Source of the DNA: Candidatus Bathyarchaeota archaeon BA2
GTDB lineage: Archaea; Thermoproteota; Bathyarchaeia; Bathyarchaeales; Bathyarchaeaceae
Reading direction: 5' to 3'
Assembly (NCBI GenBank): GCA_001399795.1
Contig: LIHK01000010.1
Location: 1-53,996 of the forward strand
DNA: 53,996 nt
Below the pieces are notes generated by a model that worked only from the letters and a program-made list of their open reading frames with translations, was not told the DNA's origin and did no database searches. This document shows, piece by piece, positions 1-42,981 of this stretch. Position numbers and translations under genes: made by a program. Within the stretch, counting starts at the first letter, position 1, and each line of letters begins with the position of its first letter.

Positions 1-471
1 GTTTCTCTTCCCCCTCAGGAAGCGGTAAAGTTTGGAAATCGCTGTCCGGTTTGTCGCAGAAAACTCACGAAGGGAGTGGAGCAACGCGTGGAAGAACTGG
101 CAGATCGACCTGTAGACTTCAAGCCCGAAGAAGCGATAGGCTACATGCATCTGTTACCCCTATCCGAAATAATCGCAACCGTTTTGGGAGTCAACTATCC
201 TGGCACCAGAAAAGTTTGGGGTATCTACAATCCGCTTGTCAAGAGGTTTGGCAATGAATACGCCGTGCTCATAGACGCATCAAAAGAAGAAATGTCCCAG
301 ATCGTTGATCCAGGGATCGCTGAAACCATTGTCCGTGTTAGAGAAGGCAAAGTGAAGGTTAATCCTGGATACGACGGTGTTTACGGCCAACTCGTAATCT
401 TTAAGGAAGAAGAAAAAGTAAAGGCTGCGCCAAAAAAGCCAAAGCAACGAAGCATAGCTGACTTTATGTAA
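1..471 (+). CDS. Endonuclease Q / PHP-family protein (TIGR00375-like), C-terminal part, 5'-truncated by window
   Basis: Frame is open from base 1: CPVCRRKLTKGVEQRVEELADR...HLLPLSEII...PGYDGVYG, the typical C-terminus of this family. Confidence 0.8.
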   Translation, partial: VSLPPQEAVKFGNRCPVCRRKLTKGVEQRVEELADRPVDFKPEEAIGYMHLLPLSEIIATVLGVNYPGTRKVWGIYNPLVKRFGNEYAVLIDASKEEMSQIVDPGIAETIVRVREGKVKVNPGYDGVYGQLVIFKEEEKVKAAPKKPKQRSIADFM

Positions 472-560: not shown

Positions 561-1319
561 TTGAAGCTGCGTATAGCTTTAGTTCAATTTGGGCGGGGGT
601 TGAATAAGCCCAAAAACGTTGACCGTATGCTTTCAACCCTTTCAAAAATAAAGAATGTAGATATTGTTTGTCTGCCTGAAGCTTGGACTGGTAGAGGACT
701 TTTCCTAGAAGAGAAAGAATGCAAATCACTTCTCTCATCATTATGTCAACTCGCTGCCGAAAACGGTTACAATCTCCTAACTGGAGGCCTGTTTAATCGT
801 CGGGGAGAGAAAATCTTCGACACATGCCACGTAATTAGCAGGGATGGAAAGGTAATCGGTTTTTACGATAAGCGTTTTCCGTCCACAGCCTTTAACGAAA
901 GAAATTTCACTAGCTCTGGGAATGTTTCTCCAGTTTTTAAAGTTGACAGCGTCAATATCGGTGTATTGATTTGCGTTGATGCCCTCTACCCAGAACTCGC
1001 CAGAAACTTGGCTCTAAACGATGCCCACATAATTTTCAACCCATCAAACATACCCCAAAATCGAAGCGAATTATGGAAACACGTGTCAGTAACTAGAGCC
1101 GCAGAAAACACGGTTTTCTACGTTTTCGTCAACAACACCAACACCCGTTATCCAGATGGACGGATGGTGAAAGGCCACAGCATTGTCGCGGCGCCAGACG
1201 GAGAAGTGATTCTGGAAGCAGGTGAAGAGGAAAAGGTGTTCCAAACCAAGCTTGATCTGAACCAAATAGAAAGAATTAGAAAACGCTGGCGATACCTAAA
1301 CGACATACGCCAACTATAA
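561..1319 (+). CDS. Carbon-nitrogen hydrolase (nitrilase superfamily)
   Basis: CLPEAW (Glu), YDKRF (Lys), LICVDALYPE (Cys) catalytic triad motifs. Confidence 0.88.
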   Translation: MKLRIALVQFGRGLNKPKNVDRMLSTLSKIKNVDIVCLPEAWTGRGLFLEEKECKSLLSSLCQLAAENGYNLLTGGLFNRRGEKIFDTCHVISRDGKVIGFYDKRFPSTAFNERNFTSSGNVSPVFKVDSVNIGVLICVDALYPELARNLALNDAHIIFNPSNIPQNRSELWKHVSVTRAAENTVFYVFVNNTNTRYPDGRMVKGHSIVAAPDGEVILEAGEEEKVFQTKLDLNQIERIRKRWRYLNDIRQL

Positions 1320-1392
1320 ACCGTCTCTTCACCAAGCGGTACAACAACCACTTTATTAAATTGGGAGCCGATAGAAAATAGTGGTGTAAAGC

Positions 1393-4129: not shown

Positions 4130-5489
4130 ACCCGAGGAATTAACCAACATTGGAGAAAAAGCCGTTAAAATTGCAACTAAGAAAGGCGCTGAAGAGGCTG
4201 AAGCATTTCTAAGCATAAGCTCCAGCATATCTGTGGGGATTGAAAGGGGACAGATCGTTAGAAGCGTCAAGGGGATGGATCGAGGCCTAGGGGTAAGAGC
4301 CCTCTACAAAAAGGCAGCGGGTTTCTCCTACACAAACATATTAACAGACAAAACAATCCAAGACGCCGCTGTCAAGGCTTTCCACTCAGCCAAAGCCAGC
4401 AAACCAGACAAAAACTGGGTAAGCCTACCCAGCCCCAAGAAGCACAGCGCAACCAAGAGCACATACGACAAAAGACTGCCCGCCATCCCACCTGACGAAT
4501 TGGTGGAAACGGCGTCAGTCGCATTGAATGCAGCAGAAGGCTACGACAAGCGAGTTTTCCCCGTAGGGGGAGGAGTTGGAACCCTCCTTGCAGCTAGAGC
4601 CATCATCAACTCATATGGAGTGGAGGCTTACGATAAAGGCACAAGCATCGGATGCTCCATCGAAACCATAGCGAGAGAAGCCGGCGAGGTTACTCCCGTG
4701 TGTTTTGAATTCAACGCAGAAAGGGTTTACAAAATTGACCCGGAATGGGTGGGAAGAGAAGCGGCTAGGCAAGCAATTTATTCCCTCAAAGCCAAGAAAA
4801 TCAAATCTGGAAACCTTCCCATAATATTCACTCAACCAGCGTTTCACGCCCTTCTTTACTATACGCTGATAAACGCCGTGAAAGCGGACTACGTTCAAAG
4901 GGAGCGATCTGCCCTCAAAGGAAAAATCGGAGAGAAAATTGCCTCGGATCTTGTGACGGTTCACGATAACGGATTGCTTGAAGGCGGTCTTCAAACATGG
5001 AAATTTGACGGCGAGGGAGCTCCTAGCCAAAAAACTTTGCTCATTGAGAAGGGTGTCTTGAAGCATTACCTCTACGACAACTATACGGCGAAGAAGACTG
5101 GCGTTGAAAGCACTGGAAACGCTTTTAGGGGGGACCTAGCCCCATACGCGTCTACGCCAGTTTTGGAGGCAACAAACTTCACCTTTTCTCCAAGAAACAA
5201 ATCTCCAGAAAATCTTATCAACGAAATTGATGACGGACTCATAGTTTACGGTGTGCAAGGCGCCCACAGCAGTAACCCAGAAAGCGGAGAATTTTCTGTG
5301 GTAGCCACCCCGGCATGGAAGATTGAAAAAGGTAGCGTAGCCTATGCTGTGAAGGGAGCAATGCTGGCGGGTACGGTCTTCGACGTTTTGAAGAATATAT
5401 CGGCTCTTGGCAACAACACGAGGAAGATAGGACACTTAGTTGCACCATGGATTCGAGTGGAAAACGTTAAAATCATTGGAAGGCGATGA
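4116..5489 (+). CDS. pmbA: PmbA/TldE subunit
   Basis: TldD paralog lacking HExxH, FDGEG and STGNA motifs, overlaps tldD. Confidence 0.9.
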   Translation: MAELKPEELTNIGEKAVKIATKKGAEEAEAFLSISSSISVGIERGQIVRSVKGMDRGLGVRALYKKAAGFSYTNILTDKTIQDAAVKAFHSAKASKPDKNWVSLPSPKKHSATKSTYDKRLPAIPPDELVETASVALNAAEGYDKRVFPVGGGVGTLLAARAIINSYGVEAYDKGTSIGCSIETIAREAGEVTPVCFEFNAERVYKIDPEWVGREAARQAIYSLKAKKIKSGNLPIIFTQPAFHALLYYTLINAVKADYVQRERSALKGKIGEKIASDLVTVHDNGLLEGGLQTWKFDGEGAPSQKTLLIEKGVLKHYLYDNYTAKKTGVESTGNAFRGDLAPYASTPVLEATNFTFSPRNKSPENLINEIDDGLIVYGVQGAHSSNPESGEFSVVATPAWKIEKGSVAYAVKGAMLAGTVFDVLKNISALGNNTRKIGHLVAPWIRVENVKIIGRR

Positions 5490-29445: not shown

Positions 29446-29540
29446 GCCCCGGTGGCTAAGTCCGGTTATAGCAGCGGCCTTGTATGTAAAGTGCCTGAGA
29501 GAGCCGCAGGTCGCGGGTTCGAATCCCGCCCGGGGCTCCA
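29446..29540 (+). tRNA. tRNA-Thr(TGT) with 17-nt intron at 37/38
   Basis: Full cloverleaf nearly identical to the 25781 copy; BHB helix CTTG/TGAG; encoded CCA. Confidence 0.93.
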
Positions 29541-33015: not shown

Positions 33016-33057
33016 TGGTGCGGCGGACCGGATTTGAACTAGCGAACCTCTACGGGG
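33016..33057 (-). repeat. tRNA-Leu 3' fragment (variable arm to CCA), degenerate
   Basis: CCCCGTAGAGGTTCGCTAGTTCAAATCCGGTCCGCCGCACCA. Confidence 0.8.
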
Positions 33058-33094
33058 CGTAAGTCTTACAAATCAAGAAGTTGAATGTACGTCC

Positions 33095-33421
33095 ATGAGT
33101 AAGACCATTTTTGAAGTTGTTGCAAAATTTGGGAAAAAGGTTAGGTTAACTGAAGGAAAATGTGACCATGTCTGTAAGAGCCATCCAGAAGTGACGGGTG
33201 AAATAGGTAAAATGAAGGAGACTTTAGTCTCGCCGCAGATGATTAGAAGAAGTCTATATGATGAGAAGGTTTGGTTGTTTTATCGTTTCTTCGAGGATAC
33301 GCCGGTTACTGAAAAGTATTTAATGGTGGCTGCGAGAATACTCAACGATGAAGGATTCGTGGTTACAAGTTACTTTACAGACAAGGTTAAGATGGGTGAA
33401 GAAAATTGGAGGGAAAGATAA
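33095..33421 (+). CDS. Putative RelE/DUF4258-like toxin
   Basis: HVCKSHPEV...ETLVSP...FVVTSYFT, upstream of a DUF2283 gene. Confidence 0.7.
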   Translation: MSKTIFEVVAKFGKKVRLTEGKCDHVCKSHPEVTGEIGKMKETLVSPQMIRRSLYDEKVWLFYRFFEDTPVTEKYLMVAARILNDEGFVVTSYFTDKVKMGEENWRER

Positions 33422-33642
33422 ACTTCTTCTTCGATGAAGAGGGTGATGTGTTAGACATCACTTTTGGGGAGCCGAGAAATGCCGTCGCGAAGGAATTAAA
33501 GAATGACATAGCGATACGGGTAGACCCAAAAACTGGGGAAATAGTAGGCATTGTGATACTAAATTTCATGAGAAGATTTAGGTTGAAGAAGAAAACAGAG
33601 AAAATTGAACTTCCCGTCAAAGTCACAATAACCACAAGTTAA
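33406..33642 (+). CDS. DUF2283-family antitoxin
   Basis: FDEEGDVLDITF, IRVDPKTGEIVGIVILNF. Confidence 0.8.
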   Translation: MEGKINFFFDEEGDVLDITFGEPRNAVAKELKNDIAIRVDPKTGEIVGIVILNFMRRFRLKKKTEKIELPVKVTITTS

Positions 33643-33649
33643 CAATTTT

Positions 33650-33668
33650 TGGTGTGGCGGGCAAGACT
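33650..33668 (-). repeat. Short tRNA-Leu 3' end remnant
   Basis: TGGTGTGGCGGGCAAGACT versus intact TGGTGCAGCGGGCAGGATT. Confidence 0.5.
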
Positions 33669-33711
33669 GTTCAAAACCTTGATTTGATCATTAAGGGATT
33701 GAGGGGCAAGC

Positions 33712-33804
33712 TTAAAGCCTTAAAGTTCTATACTGAAATCCATTTAGGTCCTTTAGTCTCCTTAGAAACTCCTTAGTGAAGACAAACTCAAATTTCTTGT
33801 TCAT
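33712..33804 (-). pseudogene. Truncated RelE/ParE toxin
   Basis: MNKKFEFVFTKEFLRRLKDL... stops after 30 aa; overlaps the end of the upstream antitoxin. Confidence 0.6.
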
Positions 33805-34018
33805 TCAAACTCAGCTCTTTGGGGAACTCCTTGAAGCCGAGCAGTCTATCCTTCTGGATGTCTTTCTCGCTAACCTTGATGCTTTCCATAAGCGTCTCAT
33901 CGCTTAGGATCTCTAGGGTCTCTATGAGCCCCTCAACAAGCAAGCGGAGTTTTGGCATCTCTTCGGCTAAAGTCTTCAGATTTCTCCTATCCTCATCGGT
34001 TAAAACCACTTTAACCAA
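33788..34018 (-). CDS. RelB-like antitoxin
   Basis: ETLEILSDETLMESIKVSEKDIQKDRL acidic antitoxin C-terminus. Confidence 0.65.
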   Translation of the reverse strand: MVKVVLTDEDRRNLKTLAEEMPKLRLLVEGLIETLEILSDETLMESIKVSEKDIQKDRLLGFKEFPKELSLNEQEI

Positions 34019-34127
34019 CCTTAGCCACCAACATTGCTTTGTAATCTACAAGAACTGTGCCTCTATTAAAATTTCTCTCGAATAATCTGAAAACCTCCTA
34101 AAATCTCGCTCTTTTAACGGAAATTCA

Positions 34128-34197
34128 TGGTGCGGAGGGTGGGATTCGAACCAGCGAACCCCTACGGGAGAGGACGTCTCCATCTAGGCTTGAGTCC
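34128..34197 (-). repeat. tRNA-Leu(CAA) 3' fragment from anticodon stem to CCA, with degenerate intron
   Basis: AGGACTCAAG-[CCTAGATGGAGAC]-GTCCTC...TTCGAAT...CCTCCGCACCA. Confidence 0.8.
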
Positions 34198-34215
34198 TTA
34201 AAGGGCACTTATGTT

Positions 34216-35112
34216 TCACTTCTTTAGTATAGATTTGATCGTATTGACCAAACTTTCTTCGAGTTTCCTAGCACCTCTAGGATCGTAGGTGTACTCAATC
34301 ACCCTTAGGTGTCTTATGTCGAAGGGGACATCATCCATAGACTGAGTTAATATCACCACTTCTTTGCCCACGGTGTGCGCAATGCCCAACTCATAATATA
34401 CATTGGGATTTTTTCCTGTAACATCAGCAATTACTATCCTCGCCTTACTGATGTATTCCCAGATATCTTCAATTATCTCCCGATTAGAAAAAATGTCATC
34501 CGACCGCATACATTTCATTTTGCATTCTTCAACAATCACCTTCTTAATATGATCTTCATAAATTGGTTGAAATCTCTGTTCAAACGGCATCAACACAAAG
34601 CATAAATTTTGTTCCAAAAGAAATCCTCTTCCTTTGAAAATTGGGTTAATTGTAATTTTACGTCTTGCTTTTTCCTCTTCTTGCAGTTCAAATTCTATGT
34701 ATTCATTTGCAAGATTTTTCAGTGCTTCACCTCGTTCTGCTGTGGAAAGATCAGCGAGACTAGCTGGAATGCTTGCAATCAAAAGTTCGTCGGGTGGAAA
34801 ACCGCAGTATGTAATAGCTAGAGCCTTAGCATCCTCTAGGCCAAGTGGCTCTTCTTTTTTATGCTCATAATAAAACCATCTTGTTTGCCCCGCGATGGCA
34901 CCTTTGTTAGTGATTATCAAAATAATCTCCTTTTTATCCACGGTGATCACTAGATAGAGGGGTCGTAAGAGACGAAGAGATATTCTTTTCATACCTCTCT
35001 CTTCAAGAGTACGTCTGACACTCGATACAAACTCTTCCACACATTTCTGAACATTATCTCTTTTTGGTGTATGAATAGTCGGAGTTAGTAAAAATTGGTC
35101 GAAGAAACTCAT
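34216..35112 (-). CDS. Protein with C-terminal nucleoside-2-deoxyribosyltransferase/TIR-like domain
   Basis: CFVLMPF...RSDD...IADVTGKNPNVYYELGIAH...PFDIRHLRVIEY. Confidence 0.75.
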   Translation of the reverse strand: MSFFDQFLLTPTIHTPKRDNVQKCVEEFVSSVRRTLEERGMKRISLRLLRPLYLVITVDKKEIILIITNKGAIAGQTRWFYYEHKKEEPLGLEDAKALAITYCGFPPDELLIASIPASLADLSTAERGEALKNLANEYIEFELQEEEKARRKITINPIFKGRGFLLEQNLCFVLMPFEQRFQPIYEDHIKKVIVEECKMKCMRSDDIFSNREIIEDIWEYISKARIVIADVTGKNPNVYYELGIAHTVGKEVVILTQSMDDVPFDIRHLRVIEYTYDPRGARKLEESLVNTIKSILKK

Positions 35113-35226
35113 AAGCGTTCACTTTGAAATCAGTACAAAATATCGATGAGTCGCATTTGATTTTTAAATATTATGTAGGATTGTCTATTTCGATATTATA
35201 AATTCTATTTCAAGTTCAGCATACTT

Positions 35227-35278
35227 TGGTGCAGGGGGTGAGATTTGAACTCACGAACCCCTTCGGGACGGGATCTTG
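35227..35278 (-). repeat. tRNA-Leu 3' fragment (anticodon loop to CCA)
   Basis: CAAGATCCCGTCCCGAAGGGGTTCGTGAGTTCAAATCTCACCCCCTGCACCA with intact T-arm. Confidence 0.85.
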
Positions 35279-35280
35279 GG

Positions 35281-35790
35281 TCACCATCTTTTATAAGGAG
35301 TGCTGCTCCATTGTTTTTTCACTTTATTTCGCATAAATTTCTGGAAGTGTATTGCTGGATTGTTTGATTTAGGAACTATTTCAACGACCTCTATGATTAT
35401 GCTTCTTGTTTTTTGATAACGCTCGATAACTTCATTTATATATGTTGTTAACTCTGCAAGTTGACACAGATCAGCATTATGGGCACTTAAAATCTCACCA
35501 GTACTTTCAAACTTATGCTCCTCGTATATGTGATTAAATATATACAACTGAAATTCAAGATATTTTTCAAGATCGCCTTTCTCTGGTATGTTATGTTCCA
35601 GTAGATATCTAGCCATAGCGTAGGTTATAGCCAGCTCATCATAAGTGTAAGGAAACCTTGCTTTGCAATCACTGCATTTATCAAACACAATTTTAATTTG
35701 TCGTTGTTCACTAGGCGACCGGACTTGTCTGGTTTCGATGAATCTCCCACATACCTCGCAAAGCGCATCAGCATTGCTTAAAATCAGCCA
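35281..35790 (-). CDS. Zinc-finger hypothetical protein, true start lost or frameshifted
   Basis: Frame extends upstream of the listed ORF: LCEVCGR...DKCSDCKARFPY, with no in-frame ATG before the first CxxC. Confidence 0.5.
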   Translation of the reverse strand, partial: WLILSNADALCEVCGRFIETRQVRSPSEQRQIKIVFDKCSDCKARFPYTYDELAITYAMARYLLEHNIPEKGDLEKYLEFQLYIFNHIYEEHKFESTGEILSAHNADLCQLAELTTYINEVIERYQKTRSIIIEVVEIVPKSNNPAIHFQKFMRNKVKKQWSSTPYKRW

Positions 35791-35815
35791 TTTCCCCTAT
35801 ACGTATTCGTGCATT

Positions 35816-35968
35816 CTATTCGATGTCAAAAACGTGGCCGCATCTAGGGCATTTAACGTTTTTGAGTTTTTCTTTAACTTTGTCTAGTTCACGGCGACAT
35901 TGCATTGCTTCAGAGGAGTAATGGGCTATCTCTCGATCTTTCCAAAAAGGATACTGACCTCTAGACAT
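35816..35968 (-). CDS. 50-aa zinc-ribbon microprotein (below ORF-track cutoff)
   Basis: MSRGQYPFWKDRE...KCPRCGHVFDIE*. Confidence 0.55.
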   Translation of the reverse strand: MSRGQYPFWKDREIAHYSSEAMQCRRELDKVKEKLKNVKCPRCGHVFDIE

Positions 35969-36029
35969 TTTTCATCAATAGCTAATCAATGAATTGTGTA
36001 GAAAAACTTTTCGAAGGCACTAAATTGAT

Positions 36030-36117
36030 TGGTGCAGCGGGCAGGATTTGAACCTGCGAACCCCTACGGGAAAGGATCTTGAGTCCTTCGCCTTTGACCT
36101 GGCTTGGCGACCGCTGC
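36030..36117 (-). tRNA. tRNA-Leu(CAA), intact, intronless
   Basis: All stems pair: GCAGCGG/CCGCTGC, AAGGA-CTCAAGA-TCCTT, long variable arm, GCAGG-TTCAAAT-CCTGC, CCA. Confidence 0.95.
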
Positions 36118-36212
36118 TGACCAAGCACTTAAATTTGCATACAGAATAATTAAGTATTACTTAAAAGAAAAACACTCAAAAGAAAGCGCTAAAATCAAAA
36201 TGTGGCTAAATA

Positions 36213-36896
36213 ATGGTTAATTTATCAAAAATGGGCAAAGGTAGGCATATTACCTATCATCCGCCAAAAGAAGTTCTTGATATAGAAGTTGCAGAGCTTT
36301 TAGGGCTTCATGCAGGTGATGGTTATATGTCATGCGGAATTTGGGGCGTACGATGCAACCTTCAAGACGAAGACATGGCTCAGCGAATAATACACCTAGC
36401 TCGCAACATTCTTGGAGTAGAACCGTGTGTCCGAATAAGAGAAAACACCTTTGAAATACGCAGCGGGCAAAGGCAAATAGTTCGCTTTTTCCGAAAGTAT
36501 GGCTTTATTGAAGGAAAGAAAGCCTACATCGTTCAAGTACCCAACCAAATAACCTGCACAAACGATTTAAAAATTATTGAGGCGTTCTTAAGAGGCTTAT
36601 TCAGCTCGGATGGAAGTTTCAGTTTCCAGAAAAGAGACTATTCTCCTCGCATAGATTTGATGGTTAGGAGCAGATTGCTAAGAGACCAGTTTGTCGAATT
36701 GGCTGCGAAGGTCGGCTTTTCGTTTAACAAATCCGACGCTATAAGGGTAAAGAAAGGCTTTACAACGAAATCAACTGGAGCCTTCTTTAACGCAAACCTC
36801 GCTTCAAGAGATGATGTACTGAGATGGATGACAACCATAGGCACTCTTTGCGGCACTCATATGAAAAAGTTCAAAGCTTGGCAATCAGAGACTTAA
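36213..36896 (+). mobile_element. Free-standing double-motif LAGLIDADG homing endonuclease
   Basis: ELLGLHAGDGYM and AFLRGLFSSDGSF; no intein Cys1/His-Asn termini and no flanking exons. Confidence 0.85.
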
Positions 36897-36900
36897 CTAA

Positions 36901-36947
36901 CATCTAGCCCCTATACGCATAGATTGACCTGGCTCTGCTACCCCCGC
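36901..36947 (-). pseudogene. tRNA-Leu 5' fragment with promoter and probable 20-nt D-loop intron (36904-36923)
   Basis: GCGGGGGTAGCAGAGCCAGGTCAA|TCTATGCGTATAGGGGCTAG|ATG; helix GGTC/GGCT with 3-nt bulges; upstream GAAAAAATTAATAG. Confidence 0.7.
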
Positions 36948-37055
36948 ACCCGTTTCACAAACTAACTCTTCCTTTCTATTAATTTTTTCCAACGACGGTA
37001 TCATCGTGAATATATTTATGTGTAACAAATCCTTAACGTCCTTGGAGACAGCCTC

Positions 37056-37409
37056 TTGGGGCACGTTCACGTTACAGCGAAGCTAACAAGTCCGATTACT
37101 AACGAAAGTGAAATTGTAGAGTCCCTAGTAGACACGGGAGCCACGTTTACCACGGTTCCCATAAGCTTGAGTGAAAAATTCAAATTGCCTCATGTCACGA
37201 AAAGAAGGGTCAAAACGGCAAGTGGCGAGGAAGAACTGGTTGAATCATATCTCATAATCGAGGTTCTAAACGAAAAAACTACAACCCCTGTACTTATAAG
37301 TGATAAGCTGGATCGAGTTTTGATAGGTGCCTTAACGCTGGAGGCATTAGCCTTTAAAGTAGACCCGAAAACAGGAAAACTTGAAAAAACAGAACTTTTA
37401 CTGCTTTAG
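37056..37409 (+). CDS. Clan AA aspartic protease
   Basis: SLVDTGATFT, LIGALTLEALAFKVDP. Confidence 0.85.
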   Translation: MGHVHVTAKLTSPITNESEIVESLVDTGATFTTVPISLSEKFKLPHVTKRRVKTASGEEELVESYLIIEVLNEKTTTPVLISDKLDRVLIGALTLEALAFKVDPKTGKLEKTELLLL

Positions 37410-37410
37410 A

Positions 37411-37425
37411 CTTGGCTACCGCCGC
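37411..37425 (-). repeat. 15-nt tRNA-Leu 5' end
   Basis: GCGGCGGTAGCCAAG, 1 mismatch to the 5' end of the 37730 copy. Confidence 0.6.
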
Positions 37426-37427
37426 TC

Positions 37428-37541
37428 GACCAGCCGAACTAATCTAACGAATGGTGGTCCCAACCTTTTCGCCCTTAATAACCAACAAAACGTTTTCAGG
37501 CTTGAAGCCGTTCACCACAACCACTCTCATTCTTCTCTTTT
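37428..37541 (-). pseudogene. pyrH: Duplicate of the pyrH 3' end and its downstream 16 nt
   Basis: About 4 mismatches over 114 nt versus 42273-42386. Confidence 0.9.
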
Positions 37542-37729
37542 TTAAGGATTCCTATGAGCTATCCTATAAAGAAAACTTAATCTTTCTCTCTGGAGATAGA
37601 CTCCACCCCATTTTCTTTAAATAATCCCAACATTTGCAGGTCTATTCGCGGTACATGATTAACTAACATTTTATGTGAACGCAAGAAATGTTCGGCTGGC
37701 AAAATCTCCGGTGTTTCACGTAGTCTGGA

Positions 37730-37839
37730 TGGTCGGGCGGGCCGGATTCGAACCGGCGAACCCGTACGGGAGAGGATAGCTCATGGGAGTCCAACCGATC
37801 TTGAGTCCTCCGTGTTTGACCTAGCTTCGCTACCGCCGC
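37730..37839 (-). tRNA. tRNA-Leu(CAA) with 22-nt intron (37778-37799), probably a pseudo-tRNA
   Basis: Full length, BHB helix CTCA/TGAG; acceptor 1-72 and 2-71 mismatched (CCGCCCG-ACCA) and one D-stem mismatch. Confidence 0.8.
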
Positions 37840-37951
37840 CCAATTAGCAAATTTTCTTCTCGCTTCTATTAATTCTTTCCAGTTTTCATAATGCCCAAGT
37901 AGTCAAGGCGGTGGAGGTGGCTTCTCTTCTTAAACGGAGGATTATCAAAGA

Positions 37952-38475
37952 ATGAAAACAATAACTCCTCTGGCACAGCAAGAATATGAGAGAATGTGTG
38001 AAACACTGGGCGGAAAGCCGGTACACTCAACTCTTGCATTTCATTGAGCCAGACTCATAGAACTACTATACGTGGCCGAAAGGGCCGTAGAATTGAGCAT
38101 AGACGAGAGATAACAAGTAAAGACATTAGGAATGAGGTAGGTAGCCTCGGAGAGGGAGTTGGAATAGTCGAAGCGGCCAGGGGCACCCTGATACATCATT
38201 ATCAACTTGACGAAGACGCCCTAATAAAAAAAGTCAATTTAATAGTGGCTACGACAAACAACGCTTCAGCCATATGCATGTCCATAAGAGACGCAGCTAA
38301 AGGTCTCATACACGGCGGAGAAGTGAGTGAGGAAATATTGAACATGGTGGAGATGGCCTTCAGAGCCTACGACCCATGCTGGGCATGCGCCACCCACTTC
38401 GCAATAGGTCAAATGCCCTTTGAACTCAAAATATACAGCCACAACAAAAAGCTCCTAAAAACCCTGAAAAGGTAA
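37952..38475 (+). pseudogene. mvhA: 3' third of a group-3 [NiFe]-hydrogenase large subunit
   Basis: TPLAQQEYERM...GGKPVHSTLAFH*ARLIELLY, frameshift, then VEAARGTLIHHY...RAYDPCWACATH. Confidence 0.85.
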
Positions 38476-38815
38476 CTTTCACAATTCTGATGTTGCTTTA
38501 GGCAAGAAAATCCGCAGCAAAGCAAAAGCCCTTTAAAGTAGCTCGGCAACTCGTAAAAACTTTCATAGGGAGAGCGAAAAATTTTACGTCAAGGATGCTG
38601 AAACGGACGGCAGAATACTTCTACGCAGAAAAGACGAAACAGATACATAACTAAGCAGAAGAGGCTTGATAAATCACCAAATATATGTAACCAGTGAGGG
38701 TGGGCGTTGGATAATGGATTCAGGTGTTAAAAATTGAACTCCCACTTAGGGACAAAGTTCGACAGCAACAGAAATAAGTTAGCTTGCAAGAAATTGAGGT
38801 GCAAAGTGAAGAGTA

Positions 38816-40012
38816 ATGTTAAAGTGTATAAGAATCAAAAATCTAAGATCTATCAAGGAACAAGAAATAGAGGTCGCTCCAGTAACTGTCCTTTACGGTC
38901 CTAACGCCTCTGGAAAATCAACACTTTTGCACGCACTTGCAATTCTAAGAAACGTTATGATGAATCCTAATCAACCTCTTGACAGTTTTTTCAACCTTCT
39001 CTTCGCTAACTTCGGAGGATTTGAACAAGTTGTGTTTAACCATATACCTGACGAACAAATAGAATTAGAAATAGATTCTATACAGGATTCCGCAATTATA
39101 ACATACAAGGTCGTCCTTAGTAAGACGAAGGGAGGTTTTTCGATCCGCGTGAGCGATCCATTTAAGGCCGCATCTAAAATTGAAACAACTTTTCCATACC
39201 AAGCGAACATCCAGCAGAATATTACAGTTAAGTATGACGAGATCCCCTTGACGGTAACTTGGAACGGCATTCTTGCCCAGCCTTTAGGCACACCTGAAGC
39301 CCCAGAGGCTGCGGAGAGGTTGGCTACTTTACTCAATAGTCCCATTGAAGAGCTTCGAAAAACTGATTTTGTTCATATAAAACGAGGTTTTTCTCATCCT
39401 CACTATGGAACTGTATCACTCACCTCTGCACTTTTCACAGAAGGCGAAGTGGCGACGCTTTTAGCTAGTGATCCTTACTTAGAAGGTAAGGTCAGTCACT
39501 ACCTTGAGCAAATTCTTGGAAGAGATTTACGAGTGCGAGTAACGCCTGCAACAGCTCTTTTCTGGCTCAGAACTACAGACAAAATGACTGGATTGTCCAC
39601 CGAGCTTGTCAATGATGGATTTGGGGTTAATCAGCTTGTCTACCTGCTTGCGAAGTGTCTAAGAAAGGATACCTCTCTAATATGCATAGAAGAACCGGAG
39701 ATTCATTTGCATCCGAAAGCTCTAAGAAATCTTGTCTATGAATTGGTGAAACTGGTTAAGGAAGAATGCAAAACTTTGATCATCTCTTCTCACAGCGATC
39801 ACTTTGTTGTATATCTGCTTAGTGCTGTTGCAAAAAAGCAGATAAGCCCCGATGAAGTAGCTTGTTATCTATGCACCAAAACTAAAGAAGGAACCACGTT
39901 TGAGCGCCAGCGAGTGCAACCTGACGGTCGAATGGAGGGCGGATTGTCAAGTTTTATGGAAGGCGAATTAGAAGACCTTAAGACTATTCTAAGTCTTTCC
40001 AAAGAGGAATAA
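38816..40012 (+). CDS. ABC-class ATPase (AAA_15/AAA_21-like, DUF3696-like tail)
   Basis: GPNASGKS, DGFGVNQL signature, IEEPEIHLHP, SSHS. Confidence 0.88.
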   Translation: MLKCIRIKNLRSIKEQEIEVAPVTVLYGPNASGKSTLLHALAILRNVMMNPNQPLDSFFNLLFANFGGFEQVVFNHIPDEQIELEIDSIQDSAIITYKVVLSKTKGGFSIRVSDPFKAASKIETTFPYQANIQQNITVKYDEIPLTVTWNGILAQPLGTPEAPEAAERLATLLNSPIEELRKTDFVHIKRGFSHPHYGTVSLTSALFTEGEVATLLASDPYLEGKVSHYLEQILGRDLRVRVTPATALFWLRTTDKMTGLSTELVNDGFGVNQLVYLLAKCLRKDTSLICIEEPEIHLHPKALRNLVYELVKLVKEECKTLIISSHSDHFVVYLLSAVAKKQISPDEVACYLCTKTKEGTTFERQRVQPDGRMEGGLSSFMEGELEDLKTILSLSKEE

Positions 40013-40019
40013 ACTCGAA

Positions 40020-40472
40020 ATGGAAAGGGAAATTACCGTTGATGAATGGATAGTCCACTTTATATCTGAGCCTCAGAAACGTGAAGTGGCGGTCAAGTTT
40101 TTGGAAAAAGTTCATCAGAAATGTGACAAATTGGTCACTCTGAGAGGAGGACCCTTAGATCAAAAAATATGGAAAATGGCTAAGAGTTCACAAGATTGGG
40201 ATATTGGGGGAAAAAGACTTGTAAAGTGGTTCATGAGAGAATTTAGACTCAGCAGTAAATTTCGCGCTCTTGAAGAATTAGACATGGAACCGTTACCCGG
40301 GGATTTGGAACGAGAGACCCCAGAAGATGACTTATATCTTGTCAAAACTGCAATAAGCACGTTAGACCGCCTTATTGTTACCACAGACGGAGGGCTGAAG
40401 GAAAGGCTATCAAGCAGATCAGAATTGACTGTATGCTTTTTTGATGAATTTTTTAAAGTATATAATTGTTAG
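40020..40472 (+). CDS. PIN-fold-like protein, co-transcribed with the ATPase
   Basis: ITVDEWI, PEDDLYLV, LIVTTDGGL acidic motifs. Confidence 0.65.
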   Translation: MEREITVDEWIVHFISEPQKREVAVKFLEKVHQKCDKLVTLRGGPLDQKIWKMAKSSQDWDIGGKRLVKWFMREFRLSSKFRALEELDMEPLPGDLERETPEDDLYLVKTAISTLDRLIVTTDGGLKERLSSRSELTVCFFDEFFKVYNC

Positions 40473-40886
40473 GAAGCTATTGTTTCGTTATTATCTGCAT
40501 AATTTGTGTTCTGCGTCATAACGCATAACGGATTTTCTGACAAATTTCTTTTTCAATCCCAATTTTCTTTATTTTTAATGAAGAACACAATTTTTACCTG
40601 TAAAATAATTTTTGATGAACTAACTTTGCTAGTAAGACTAGAAGGATTTGCGGGAAAAGGACCTCGAATATAAGTTTTTGACTCTCCAAAGTGGAGAGTT
40701 TTTTATATATTAAATTCTTCTGTTATTAGGCTCCAAATAGACGCATGGAAAGGTACGAATTTTATGGAGGGTTTTGAAGTGTTGTTGGATTTGAAGGCGG
40801 GGAAGGTTAAGCTTAAGAGGTATCCACCCGAAGTCAGGTTAATTTAATTCTCCCACAATGAACATGCTGCGCGTGTTATACGGAAA

Positions 40887-41246
40887 TCACGTCTTGACAA
40901 GTTTCTTAAGTTTTTGAGCTAGTTGTTTTACGGCTTCCGCGTCTCTTTTCACAGCACCTAAAGGCATCCATGCTTCGTAGAAGTTTTGGTGAAGGGCGTT
41001 TGCTATGGAAAACAATTTAACTATTTCAGAGTCCTTAAGTTCCTCGGCTAGTTTGTCCACGAACTCCCAAAGTTCCCCATGGCTTTTTAGCTCAACGTTT
41101 CGACTGGCGGCGACTGCCTTCACCATTTCTGCTGTTGCCCCCCAAAGCTTTTCGGAGGCCTGAATGTGGTCTCCTTTGGCTAGGAGGGTCTCAGCCTCTT
41201 GTAGGTACTTCTGATTTAGGTCTAAGTAGTGCCCAGTCCTCTCCAT
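40887..41246 (-). CDS. PaREP1-family (HEPN-like) protein
   Basis: QASEKLWGA...ANALHQNFYE. Confidence 0.88.
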   Translation of the reverse strand: MERTGHYLDLNQKYLQEAETLLAKGDHIQASEKLWGATAEMVKAVAASRNVELKSHGELWEFVDKLAEELKDSEIVKLFSIANALHQNFYEAWMPLGAVKRDAEAVKQLAQKLKKLVKT

Positions 41247-41921
41247 ACTGCTTCCTCATCTTTTCAAGGCTTTAGCCACTACTTAAGACTTATGCGTGGC
41301 TTCAGAGAAGGAAACTCTAAGAAAAAGGTTAAGTAGCTATAACCATTCTAGCGCAAGCAGATTTTATTAGTGGATAGGAAACTTCAAACCTAACCTTAGA
41401 CGCGGTGAGAATAAAAATAACCCTAAACAGCGACAGCGCAATAAGACAGCGCAATAACATTTATGACAAAGCTCCTTCCAAGACCGCTACGAGTAAAACC
41501 GAAAACCAGTTTTCTATGGAAACCCGTTTTGTACATGTCTAAACAGTCGGGTAGTGGCTCTGTTAGATAGACCGCCTATATAGCCCCCTCTATATTATAC
41601 TTTCAACATTCTTTCCAGGCTTTGCGGCTTCTATCCCCATTCCAGCGCAATAGATTTCTGAGAAAACCTGTTTTCAACATTTCACCTTATTAGAACCGTA
41701 TAGGATACATAAAAAGGATGGAAAAATCATAACGAGGTGGCGTGAAGAACTTAGGATCCTAGTTATTTCTTCCAACAGGTTTAAAATCAAAAATGGTTTG
41801 ATATTTGATCCTGATACTCCAAAAATAAGCCCCAAATTAATGCAATTATCTACCACTGTGTCCCATTGCTAGAGCACACTGATGTTGCGATTATCGAAAA
41901 GGGACAGGTTAAAGGAATAAG

Positions 41922-41964
41922 CCCCAATTCCAGCCGGCTTCGGCGTAAGAAACTCCTTATAAAT
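41922..41964 (+). repeat. Orphan copy of the 16S rRNA 5' leader/processing strand
   Basis: CCCCAATTCCAGCCGGCTT identical to reverse complement of 46131-46149; similarity continues (AAACTCC, TAAAT). Confidence 0.7.
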
Positions 41965-42288
41965 ATGAATTCGATCTATCTCCAAATTAATAAATTGGTT
42001 AAGAAATCTAAGTTAACTTGTTCTTCATCCTTTTGTGAACTACACAACCAGAACCAACATTAGCACACATGGCAAAAACTTCGATGAAATACGCATCTTA
42101 CATAGAAAGCAAGATGGTGTTAGCGATCAACCGAACGACCTTAACAAACCGGCCCATGACATTCAACAACATACACAAAAACCCATAAACAAACGAGTTA
42201 AAATAGCAAACCTAAAACAAAACCAACACAATAGAGAGGGGGCTATAGAGGGGGCTAGAAAGAGAAAGAGAGGACCAGCCGAACTAAT

Positions 42289-42981
42289 CTAACGAATGGT
42301 GGTCCCAACCTTTTCGCCCTTAACAGCCAACAAAACGTTTTCAGGCTTGAAGCCGTTCACCACAACAATTCTCATTCTTCTCTTTTCAAGAATTTTAACG
42401 GCTTCAGGATCAAGAATTTGATGAATCCCCGCCTTGTGTTTGTTTTCCTCAAACAGCCACGACAAATCATCGAAACCAAGCTCATCAATCTTTTTTGCAT
42501 CCAAATGCTTCTTGGGGTCTTTTGTGAATACGCCGTCTACGTCTGAAGCTTTCACCAACAAATCAGCCTCTATCTTCTCACCCATCATAGCCGCCACAGC
42601 GTCTGTGGTCATGCCGGGCTTCAAACCACCCATAACAACGATTTTTCCCCGCTTCAGACAGCCAAAAGCCTCATCCAAAGAAACTGGCACGGCTCCACAA
42701 CCATCTTCACCCAAACGCATAACAAACAACTGGGCGAAAAGACGCGAAACATGAATTGCAGCCCAGTCTCGTTTCGCCTCGTCCAAACCCAACTCGCCGG
42801 CGATTTTGATGAAGTCACGGGCTAGAGCGCCGCCTCCAACAACTGCAGCAACCTCGTGCCCCTGCCTCTTCAAATCCTTCAACAAATCAGCGTACCTACT
42901 AATCAAAGTAGAGTTGGGAGGAGAGACTATAACGGAACCTCCGACACGAACCACGATCTTCAACTGAAACGCTCCTACCAC
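42289..42981 (-). CDS. pyrH: UMP kinase
   Basis: VGGSVI, VVGGGALAR, GGLKPGMTTDAVA, DVDGVFTKDP. Confidence 0.95.
   Translation of the reverse strand: MVGAFQLKIVVRVGGSVIVSPPNSTLISRYADLLKDLKRQGHEVAAVVGGGALARDFIKIAGELGLDEAKRDWAAIHVSRLFAQLFVMRLGEDGCGAVPVSLDEAFGCLKRGKIVVMGGLKPGMTTDAVAAMMGEKIEADLLVKASDVDGVFTKDPKKHLDAKKIDELGFDDLSWLFEENKHKAGIHQILDPEAVKILEKRRMRIVVVNGFKPENVLLAVKGEKVGTTIR

Follow-up and report, generated by a model that had tools for sequence, protein, structure and literature searches.

Nested halves of tRNA-Leu(CAA) genes around a homing endonuclease gene in a Bathyarchaeota contig suggest repeated cassette invasions and a possible natural home-and-rescue drive

Homing endonucleases limit the harm to their hosts by residing in self-splicing introns or inteins or between genes. 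SegB, a free-standing endonuclease encoded beside the tRNA genes of phage T4, is thought to favour the inheritance of itself together with the neighbouring tRNA region. The endonuclease open reading frames (ORFs) of mitochondria, such as that of Allomyces atp6, bring a replacement for the 3′ end of the gene they enter, and the displaced original stays downstream as a pseudogene piece; to our knowledge, reciprocal nested invasions are not known for them. Here, we describe a locus of Candidatus Bathyarchaeota archaeon BA2 (contig LIHK01000010.1) in which an intact tRNA-Leu(CAA) gene and a LAGLIDADG homing endonuclease gene lie nested between the 5′ and 3′ pieces of other tRNA-Leu(CAA) alleles. 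The stretch analysed, hereafter the window, comprises 53,996 nucleotides and is the whole contig C11 of a 1.46-Mb metagenome-assembled genome (MAG) that is 92.5% complete. The comparisons given below make it likely that this locus was formed by repeated invasions of tRNA-Leu(CAA) by selfish cassettes, each carrying an endonuclease gene and a tRNA-Leu(CAA) gene of a different allele.

The cassette endonuclease resembles SegB of T-even phages (discussed in PMC13096335) in being free-standing, beside a tRNA gene and outside any intron or intein. SegB is, in contrast, a GIY-YIG enzyme of a phage genome, which does not lie inside a tRNA gene and comes with neither split halves nor a replacement gene. 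With I-DmoI, I-Tsp061I and I-PorI of archaeal rRNA introns, the cassette endonuclease shares the fold, the archaeal setting and a conserved stable-RNA target. These enzymes, however, are encoded within a bulge-helix-bulge intron, and the host gene regains its function through RNA splicing, whereas the cassette endonuclease is free-standing (antisense in the case of HE-1, the lineage found in the window) and a second gene copy would restore the function. As in the Allomyces atp6 type, the mobile insert carries its own copy of the disrupted sequence, but the atp6 type replaces only a part of a protein gene and does so in an organelle. The same destroy-and-rescue logic underlies the synthetic Cleave-and-Rescue and home-and-rescue drives; in ClvR, an important gene is destroyed by a nuclease and its function is rescued by a closely linked copy that resists cleavage (PMC6442612). 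Those drives are engineered Cas9 systems in diploid animals, whereas the archaeal cassettes would be natural and protein-guided. Caldiarchaeum tRNA-Thr, SSV and pNOB8 also show a tRNA fragment next to a tRNA gene that was replaced or reconstituted, the two being separated by accessory DNA, and the disruption of the Caldiarchaeum gene was attributed to an integrase (PMC3293823). These cases have a recombinase gene and direct repeats of attachment (att) sites, whereas the halves described here lack such an overlap and an endonuclease gene is present at the break. In the literature searched, which covered few subscription journals, cassettes of an endonuclease and a tRNA that are nested in tRNA genes of archaea were not found described.

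The tRNA genes and their pieces were detected using Rfam and short-word BLAST, and the pieces were compared with the tRNA-Leu(CAA) genes of 40 relatives and subsequently with a 62-member panel of complete genes (loci and genomes of relatives are designated by L and G numbers, respectively). ARAGORN alone was insufficient, as its output for the region was a single tRNA and many of the tRNAs with introns in this genome were miscalled. Many tRNAs of the MAG have non-canonical or multiple introns, and a tRNA with a 17–19-nt intron at 29446–29540 on the plus strand (Rfam, 60.5 bits) was detected by ARAGORN in intron mode only and called Thr(UGU). The intact gene, T (Table 1), is 100% identical to the HE-1-linked tRNA of L075. 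It is the only CAA isoacceptor found in the MAG, where the other tRNA-Leu anticodons are CAG, TAG, TAA and, by our own reading, GAG. All the 5′ pieces are located upstream and all the 3′ pieces downstream of T on the minus strand, as the first-pass annotation of this DNA had claimed, and the positions and sequences that it gave for the pieces are correct. The 3′ pieces matched the intact gene with BLAST E-values of 1e-3 to 5e-9, and in comparisons with complete alleles of other genomes their identity reached 48/48; they are genuine tRNA-Leu fragments and not chance matches. The first-pass annotation contained neither the link to an endonuclease nor the pseudogene F1, the remnant F7 and the third-allele status of the piece ending at 34128.

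Among the tRNA-Leu(CAA) genes of the relatives, two allele classes are prominent. Type A/A′, the norm of the family, has the acceptor strand GCGGCGG or GCAGCGG, a D-arm GCCAAG...GGC and the anticodon stem AAGGA/TCCTT, and in relatives it sits 20–370 nt downstream of a gene named here X. Type B has the acceptor strand GCAGGGG or GCGGGGG, a D-arm GCAGAG...ATGC, a D-loop insert and the anticodon stem CGGGA/TCCCG, and its complete copies were found in the relatives G008, G010 and G011 and at about 25 other loci. A comparison of the halves with the alleles of relatives, which had been proposed earlier as a test, placed F3 and F5 in type B and F2 and F8 in type A. F2 matches the type-A consensus of relatives at 16 of 17 nt, and F8 differs from type A at four positions only, all being G->A or C->T transitions. 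The acceptor strand GCGGCGG of F2 (from 37425) is complementary to CCGCCGC of F8 (to 33016), and both of these outer halves are type A. Because a 114-bp copy of the X 3′ end and leader immediately precedes F2, F2 is the native 5′ end, and F2 and F8 together are the native type-A allele.

The inner 5′ half, F3, reads on as ...GGGGCTAGATG, the ending of the type-B D-loop insert, and terminates 5 nt from the stop codon of HE-1. F3 is preceded by the native tRNA-Leu leader (37005–36948), which has 91.6% identity to the leader following X in L091. The first 20 nt of F3 itself are a mosaic of types A and B. Over its last 48 nt, F5 shows no difference from the type-B tRNAs of L082 and L091 (48/48), and F5 as a whole is 98% identical to L091 2946–3003. 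F3 and F5 are thus the two halves of one type-B allele. The inner 5′ strand GCGGGGG (36947) had earlier been paired with the 3′ strand at 35227 or with that at 34128; the former pairing stands, as both are of type B, and the latter does not, since F6 derives from a third allele and does not belong with F3. F6 has an anticodon stem ..GGA/TCCTC, an intron resembling that of the HE-1-linked tRNAs in L068–L076 and a decayed T stem. F1 has mismatches in the D stem and in the acceptor pairs 1:72 and 2:71. Its allele class is one found directly downstream of HE-2, the second endonuclease lineage, in L081 and L089, and its 5′ segment GCGGCGGTAGCGAAGCTAGGTC matches L089; upstream of it, the leader and some 12 codons from the C-terminus of an HE-2 persist (37893–37855; weak tblastn matches). 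F7 aligns with the end of a fuller 3′ piece that precedes the same toxin–antitoxin pair in L091.

Positions 3 and 70 were found to co-vary in all 11 loci having both outer halves (5 G-C and 6 A-T; Fisher's exact test, ~0.002–0.004, for loci that are not fully independent), and the acceptor-stem match of the halves exceeds the generic conservation of tRNA-Leu. Because the matched halves trace to the same alleles and these two positions co-vary, the nesting is real. The proposal of successive insertions, each with a replacement tRNA, made earlier from the window alone, gained support from the shared allele class of the matched halves and from the reverse nesting in G010 described below.

Gene halves could also be read as split tRNA genes of the Nanoarchaeum and Caldivirga type, transcribed separately and joined in trans. 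The leader of F3 is indeed intact with a TATA-like box, and the genome is rich in non-canonical tRNA introns, which suggests a splicing machinery of broad specificity. An intact CAA gene is nevertheless present in T, and the halves are truncated or damaged: F5 carries U33->C, F2 is 17 nt long, and F6 and F8 have T-stem mismatches. The longest complementary stretches between trailers and leaders and their duplex energies were within those of shuffled controls, and the earlier remark that leader/trailer complementarity is missing was thus borne out. Furthermore, the same halves are found in many genomes at differing stages of decay, and we give joining in trans next to no chance of being the explanation.

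The gene lying between F3 and T, HE-1, is transcribed divergently from T and is antisense to the tRNA pieces. Its product matched the Pfam families LAGLIDADG_3 (E=1.5e-9, 38.4 bits against a cut-off of 22.5) and Hom_end (22.8 bits against a cut-off of 21.1). It contains the two motifs LLGLHAGDG and LRGLFSSDG, the acidic residues of which, D36 and D133, show no variation among 24 homologues. The AlphaFold model (predicted local distance difference test, pLDDT, 90; predicted template modelling score, pTM, 0.89) has the two-domain alpha-beta-beta-alpha-beta-beta-alpha fold, and the best Foldseek matches, all with a probability of 1.00, were the TliVMA intein endonuclease, I-Tsp061I and I-DmoI. 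In sequence and predicted structure, HE-1 thus looks like an active enzyme. The median ratio of non-synonymous to synonymous substitution rates (dN/dS) was 0.17 for HE-1 and 0.10 for HE-2, and by this estimate the endonuclease genes are under purifying selection. Intein termini were not found in HE-1, and no Rfam intron family was matched between 27000 and 43000. Because HE-1 is antisense to the tRNA pieces and has neither intein termini nor an Rfam intron match, it is of the free-standing kind.

BLASTP detected homologues of HE-1 with 43% identity in the relatives G010 and G011, and in both the gene immediately precedes a type-B tRNA. When an alignment of these two proteins and the window HE-1 was used as a query, homologues were found at 48 other loci of Bathyarchaeia and Nitrososphaerota (19 genome contigs and 29 metagenome contigs), many of the variants coming from the Ga0315308–Ga0315314 series of metagenomes. 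A tRNA-Leu gene was present within about 130 nt of the endonuclease gene in 48/48 loci (the 5′ part of the tRNA only in L071), its anticodon being CAA in Bathyarchaeia and UAA in Nitrososphaerota. Many of these loci are flanked by two halves of another tRNA-Leu(CAA) allele. The endonuclease tree has three well-supported clades, which agree with the orientation and the partner tRNA. Members of the HE-1 clade, including that of the window, are divergent from a tRNA of type A/A′ and lie inside type-B genes. Those of the HE-2 clade are co-oriented with a tRNA that is usually of type B, 30–100 nt upstream of it, and lie inside type-A/A′ genes. The Nitrososphaerota clade is co-oriented with tRNA-Leu(UAA), and flanking halves are mostly absent. 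Strong matches occur in about 4–5 of 301 Bathyarchaeia species genomes (about 1.5%), and copies with stops or truncations were noticed at L061–L064, L067, L076, L086 and L092–L096. A patchy spread with decayed copies alongside intact ones, as read from these genomes, is the typical pattern of homing endonucleases.

Two further features of these clades were observed. In the Nitrososphaerota loci L057, L058, L060, L063 and L065, the endonuclease has an N-terminal extension and its gene is directly upstream of an intron-bearing tRNA-Leu(UAA), the exons of which resemble Bathyarchaeia type B. Because of this resemblance, endonuclease and tRNA may have moved together between the classes. In addition, the DNA encoding the C-terminal ~12 residues of HE-2 (…HWKKIIETKRS) shares homology with the native tRNA-Leu leader and the TATA-like box that it contains (TTGGAAAAAATTAATAGAAAGG), for example at L054 6620–6690 and L091 2800–2892 and, in the window, at 37005–36948. 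The HE-2 ORF thus extends into the putative promoter of its tRNA.

The overlap of the last HE-2 codons with the tRNA leader and putative promoter would also be expected if the LAGLIDADG protein was a domesticated DNA-binding factor, WhiA- or maturase-like, that serves the adjacent tRNA-Leu, the fragments then resulting from ordinary homologous recombination between divergent, horizontally acquired alleles. In favour of this, purifying selection acts on the gene, its link with tRNA-Leu persists across two archaeal classes with the Nitrososphaerota loci mostly free of flanking halves, and WhiA is among the structural matches. However, WhiA-type proteins have lost the catalytic acidic residues, and both of these are invariant in the endonuclease. 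The sporadic distribution in about 1.5% of the genomes of the class and the many degraded copies do not fit a housekeeping role, and the endonuclease gene is located exactly at the break of the split tRNA genes. Domestication was therefore considered very unlikely.

The arrangement of the cassettes at the other loci showed the nesting in both directions. The full nest is present in L073 in the order A′ 5′ half, intact HE-2, B 5′ half, HE-1, tRNA, B 3′ half and A′ 3′ half, and parts of this order recur in L050, L068, L076 and L096. Reverse nesting, in which an A or A′ gene is split by a cassette of HE-2 and a type-B tRNA, was found in G010/L054, L051, L059, L084, L085, L088, L089 and L091. In G010 (L032/L054), the A′-type gene split by a cassette with a type-B tRNA is the mirror image of the window. 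The 944 bp between the two type-B halves of L068 contain HE-1 and its tRNA only, with 12 nt separating the tRNA from the type-B 3′ half; because nothing else is present there, HE-1 and its tRNA form the minimal unit. A comparison of the loci beside X showed L037 to be the same locus uninvaded, L088 and L091 to have HE-2 only, and the window and L068 to have HE-1 inside the type-B gene. The order in L088 and L091 is X, leader, A 5′ half, HE-2, type-B tRNA and A 3′ half, with 86% DNA identity to the window across X and the upstream region, and on this evidence they represent the state before the arrival of HE-1.

The points of insertion were also compared. The type-B junction of L073 reads ATGCGCGG, then the cassette, then GACTCAAG, and rejoins exactly to an intact gene. 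In type-B halves, the sequence breaks off after ATGCGCGG and continues with (G)GGACTCAAG. At HE-2 insertions, the type-A 5′ halves end in ...GCGAAG(GA) and the 3′ halves start with (GA)AGGACTCAAG, the overlap being 0–6 nt. As the halves break there, the insertion site of both endonuclease lineages is the 3′ terminus of the 5′ anticodon-stem strand. A common left-end sequence, TTTTGTGTG...AGCCCNTCTATTTGGA, is present in four HE-2 cassettes, and the right ends vary with the cargo. In L071, an HE-1-linked T-type tRNA is truncated after 26 nt (1312–1337, minus strand), and an HE-2 fragment is found ~0.9 kb on (7–444, minus strand). This locus may represent a third level of invasion, at a junction that is without the usual HE-2 left end.

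We propose that the endonuclease would target the 5′ anticodon-stem strand of a rival tRNA-Leu(CAA) allele and cut there, and that the cassette would be copied or inserted into the break, leaving the broken gene as a 5′ half and a 3′ half. The tRNA of the cassette, which differs in the anticodon and D stems, would escape cleavage and take over decoding, and the cassette would spread by homing, that is, by repair of the break from a cassette copy. Two endonuclease lineages, HE-1 and HE-2, would in this way invade each other's tRNA. For the window, the native type-A gene (F2...F8) would have received a cassette of HE-2 and a type-B tRNA. HE-2 would later have been lost, probably by recombination of the A 5′ half with the B gene, because F3 stands on the native leader and its first 20 nt are mosaic. 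The cassette of HE-1 and T, which is still intact, would then have entered the type-B gene (F3...F5). F1 and F6 may be relics of further cassettes, and small cargo genes would have piled up between the 3′ pieces.

Serial site-specific integration by tyrosine recombinases of the SSV or pNOB8 type at the anticodon-loop region of tRNA-Leu, followed by decay, would likewise leave tRNA fragments, the endonuclease being a passenger. tRNA genes are the classic att sites of archaea, and in this locus, tRNA 3′ pieces flank the cargo modules as direct repeats, as would be expected of att repeats. The 5′ tRNA fragment upstream of the replaced tRNA of Caldiarchaeum was explained in this manner (PMC3293823). 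However, the tyrosine recombinase profile PF00589, run on the contig and the rest of the genome, had no match on the contig and only three fragments elsewhere. Pfam, which was run on the window ORFs only, recognised no tyrosine recombinase among the ORFs of the island, and no integrase was recognised by eye among the cargo ORFs of eight other loci. The minimal cassette consists of endonuclease and tRNA only, the halves overlap by 0–6 nt with no att repeat of tens of bases, and the linkage of endonuclease and tRNA at 48/48 loci is hard to square with a passenger. In addition, viral contigs yielded no homologue of the endonuclease, and a virus or plasmid vehicle was rejected on this ground. Serial integration appears unlikely as the source of the nest. 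The endonuclease-driven mechanism is favoured because of the complete linkage, the endonuclease at the break, the minimal cassette, purifying selection, patchy decay and the lack of a recombinase on the contig and of a viral homologue.

Several observations weigh against an endonuclease-driven origin or complicate it. The variable junction overlaps and the non-conserved right ends of the cassettes are unexpected for the copying of one ancestral insertion. The core GGACTCAAGATCC is common to target and partner alleles, which differ only in the flanking stem bases, and the immunity must therefore rest on a few flanking bases. An A-type tRNA follows HE-2 in L081, L089, L055 and L056, which weakens a simple rule of A-versus-B specificity. 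Invaded alleles include those with a D-loop insert (L051, L084, L085, L088 and L091) and those with a canonical intron (L052, L082 and L085), and the idea that introns shield a tRNA from invasion was not supported. The CAA gene may not be strictly essential, because tRNA-Leu(UAA) might read UUG. The model leaves the arrival of cargo between the 3′ pieces unexplained, and a recombinase in trans may have acted there. Furthermore, all the sequences, of the window and the relatives alike, come from metagenome assemblies.

Table 1. Features of the tRNA-Leu(CAA) locus and its surroundings in the window.
Feature	Positions	Strand	Basis or remark
Gene X, amino-acid-kinase family, probably UMP kinase	42289–42981	minus	Pfam AA_kinase, E=3e-32
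Accessory block (4.7 kb) between two copies of the X 3′ end	37542–42272	mixed	Self-BLAST, Pfam
PaREP1/PaREP8-family protein	40887–41246	minus	Pfam, E=3e-27
AAA_15/AAA_21 ATPase (398 aa) and, 7 nt on, a 150-aa protein	38816–40472	plus	150-aa protein without Pfam match, earlier labelled PIN-like
NiFe-hydrogenase large-subunit C-terminal fragment	38044–38475	plus	Pfam positions 419–508 of 508
F1, near-complete tRNA-Leu(CAA) pseudogene, 22-nt canonical intron	37839–37730	minus	Rfam, 21.7 bits (gathering score 29)
Second partial copy of the X 3′ end with 16 nt of leader	37428–37541	minus	Directly upstream of F2
F2, 17-nt 5′ piece of native type A, GCGGCGGTAGCCAAGTC	37425–37409	minus	Sequence reading
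Retropepsin-like aspartyl protease gene	37056–37409	plus	Pfam gag-asp_proteas, Asp_protease_2
F3, type-B 5′ half, GCGGGGGTAGCAGAGCCAGGTCAA plus D-loop insert	36947–36901	minus	Sequence comparison
HE-1, free-standing two-motif LAGLIDADG homing endonuclease	36213–36896	plus	Pfam, motifs, model
T, intact intron-less tRNA-Leu(CAA), type A′ (GCAGCGG...CCGCTGC)	36117–36030	minus	ARAGORN; Rfam, 55 bits
50-aa zinc-ribbon ORF	35816–35968	minus	ORF list, Pfam; cargo between T and F5
135-aa ORF, no assigned function	35281–35688	minus	ORF list, Pfam; cargo between T and F5
F5, type-B 3′ half, anticodon loop to CCA	35282–35227	minus	Sequence comparison
Protein with nucleoside-deoxyribosyltransferase/TIR-like C-terminal domain	34216–35112	minus	Weak Pfam match, Nuc_deoxyrib_tr
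F6, 3′ half of a third allele, 14-nt canonical intron	34199–34128	minus	Sequence comparison
Small ORF	33788–34018	minus	
F7, 13-nt tRNA-Leu 3′ remnant, GCCCGCCACACCA	33662–33650	minus	Alignment with L091
Two-gene toxin–antitoxin-like pair (108-aa protein and DUF2283 protein)	33095–33642	plus	Pfam DUF2283
F8, outermost 3′ piece, variable arm to CCA, native type A	33058–33016	minus	Sequence comparison

The upstream side of the locus is defined by X, homologues of which were found 20–370 nt upstream of tRNA-Leu(CAA) in L031, L032, L034, L036, L037, L046, L047, L088 and L091. By this synteny, X lies at what was originally the 5′ boundary of the tRNA-Leu(CAA) locus. In the window, a 114-bp duplication (42386–42273 and 37541–37428; 96.5% identity by self-BLAST) involves the 3′ end of X, and its copy next to F2 has 88–89% identity to the 3′ end of X in L091 and L088. 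The duplication suggests that at least one event recombined in the upstream flank and not in the tRNA. The accessory block between the two copies holds the PaREP1-family gene, the AAA ATPase pair, the NiFe-hydrogenase fragment and F1, and its first ~48 nt (42272–42225) tentatively resemble the left end of an HE-2 cassette (TAGCCCCTCTAT). The ATPase gene and its 150-aa neighbour are likely to form a two-gene defence module, and no homologue of this pair was found at the other tRNA-Leu loci examined. The hydrogenase fragment is probably a captured pseudogene piece.

The protease gene fills the slot that HE-2 has in related cassettes, and its homologue occupies the same slot in L068 and L069. The minimal cassette of L068 lacks the cargo found between T and F5. 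An 86% identical copy of the nucleoside-deoxyribosyltransferase/TIR-like gene is present in the same slot of L084, just before a 3′ half. In L091, copies of the toxin–antitoxin-like genes (79% and 92% identical) are flanked on either side by a 3′ piece, and L034, L075 and L096 contain homologues. In L034 (G006), an intact type-A tRNA is followed by a DUF2283 toxin–antitoxin pair and a 3′ piece (4518–5314), without endonuclease or 5′ half; either the endonuclease was lost here through recombination of direct repeats or cargo arrives by a separate route.

Taken further, the locus may be the product of a natural home-and-rescue gene drive in archaea, in which rival homing endonucleases destroy each other's tRNA-Leu(CAA) allele while carrying an immune copy, yield the nested halves and make the locus a platform for cargo such as toxin–antitoxin and nucleoside-deoxyribosyltransferase/TIR-like genes. 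We lean towards this interpretation by a little over an even chance. If true, there would be a third means of averting the harm done by an endonuclease, namely a cassette that breaks a tRNA gene and brings a resistant replacement for it, and such a cassette would be a natural counterpart of the engineered cleave-and-rescue drives. It would provide an endonuclease-based route to tRNA gene fragments, which have so far been ascribed to integrases, and would point to an endonuclease family with predictable, probably reciprocal, 20-bp targets in the tRNA gene. The turnover of tRNA alleles in archaea would thereby become directly testable, and the same process would be one possible source of tRNA fragments, and perhaps of some disrupted tRNA genes, in Thermoproteota-related archaea.

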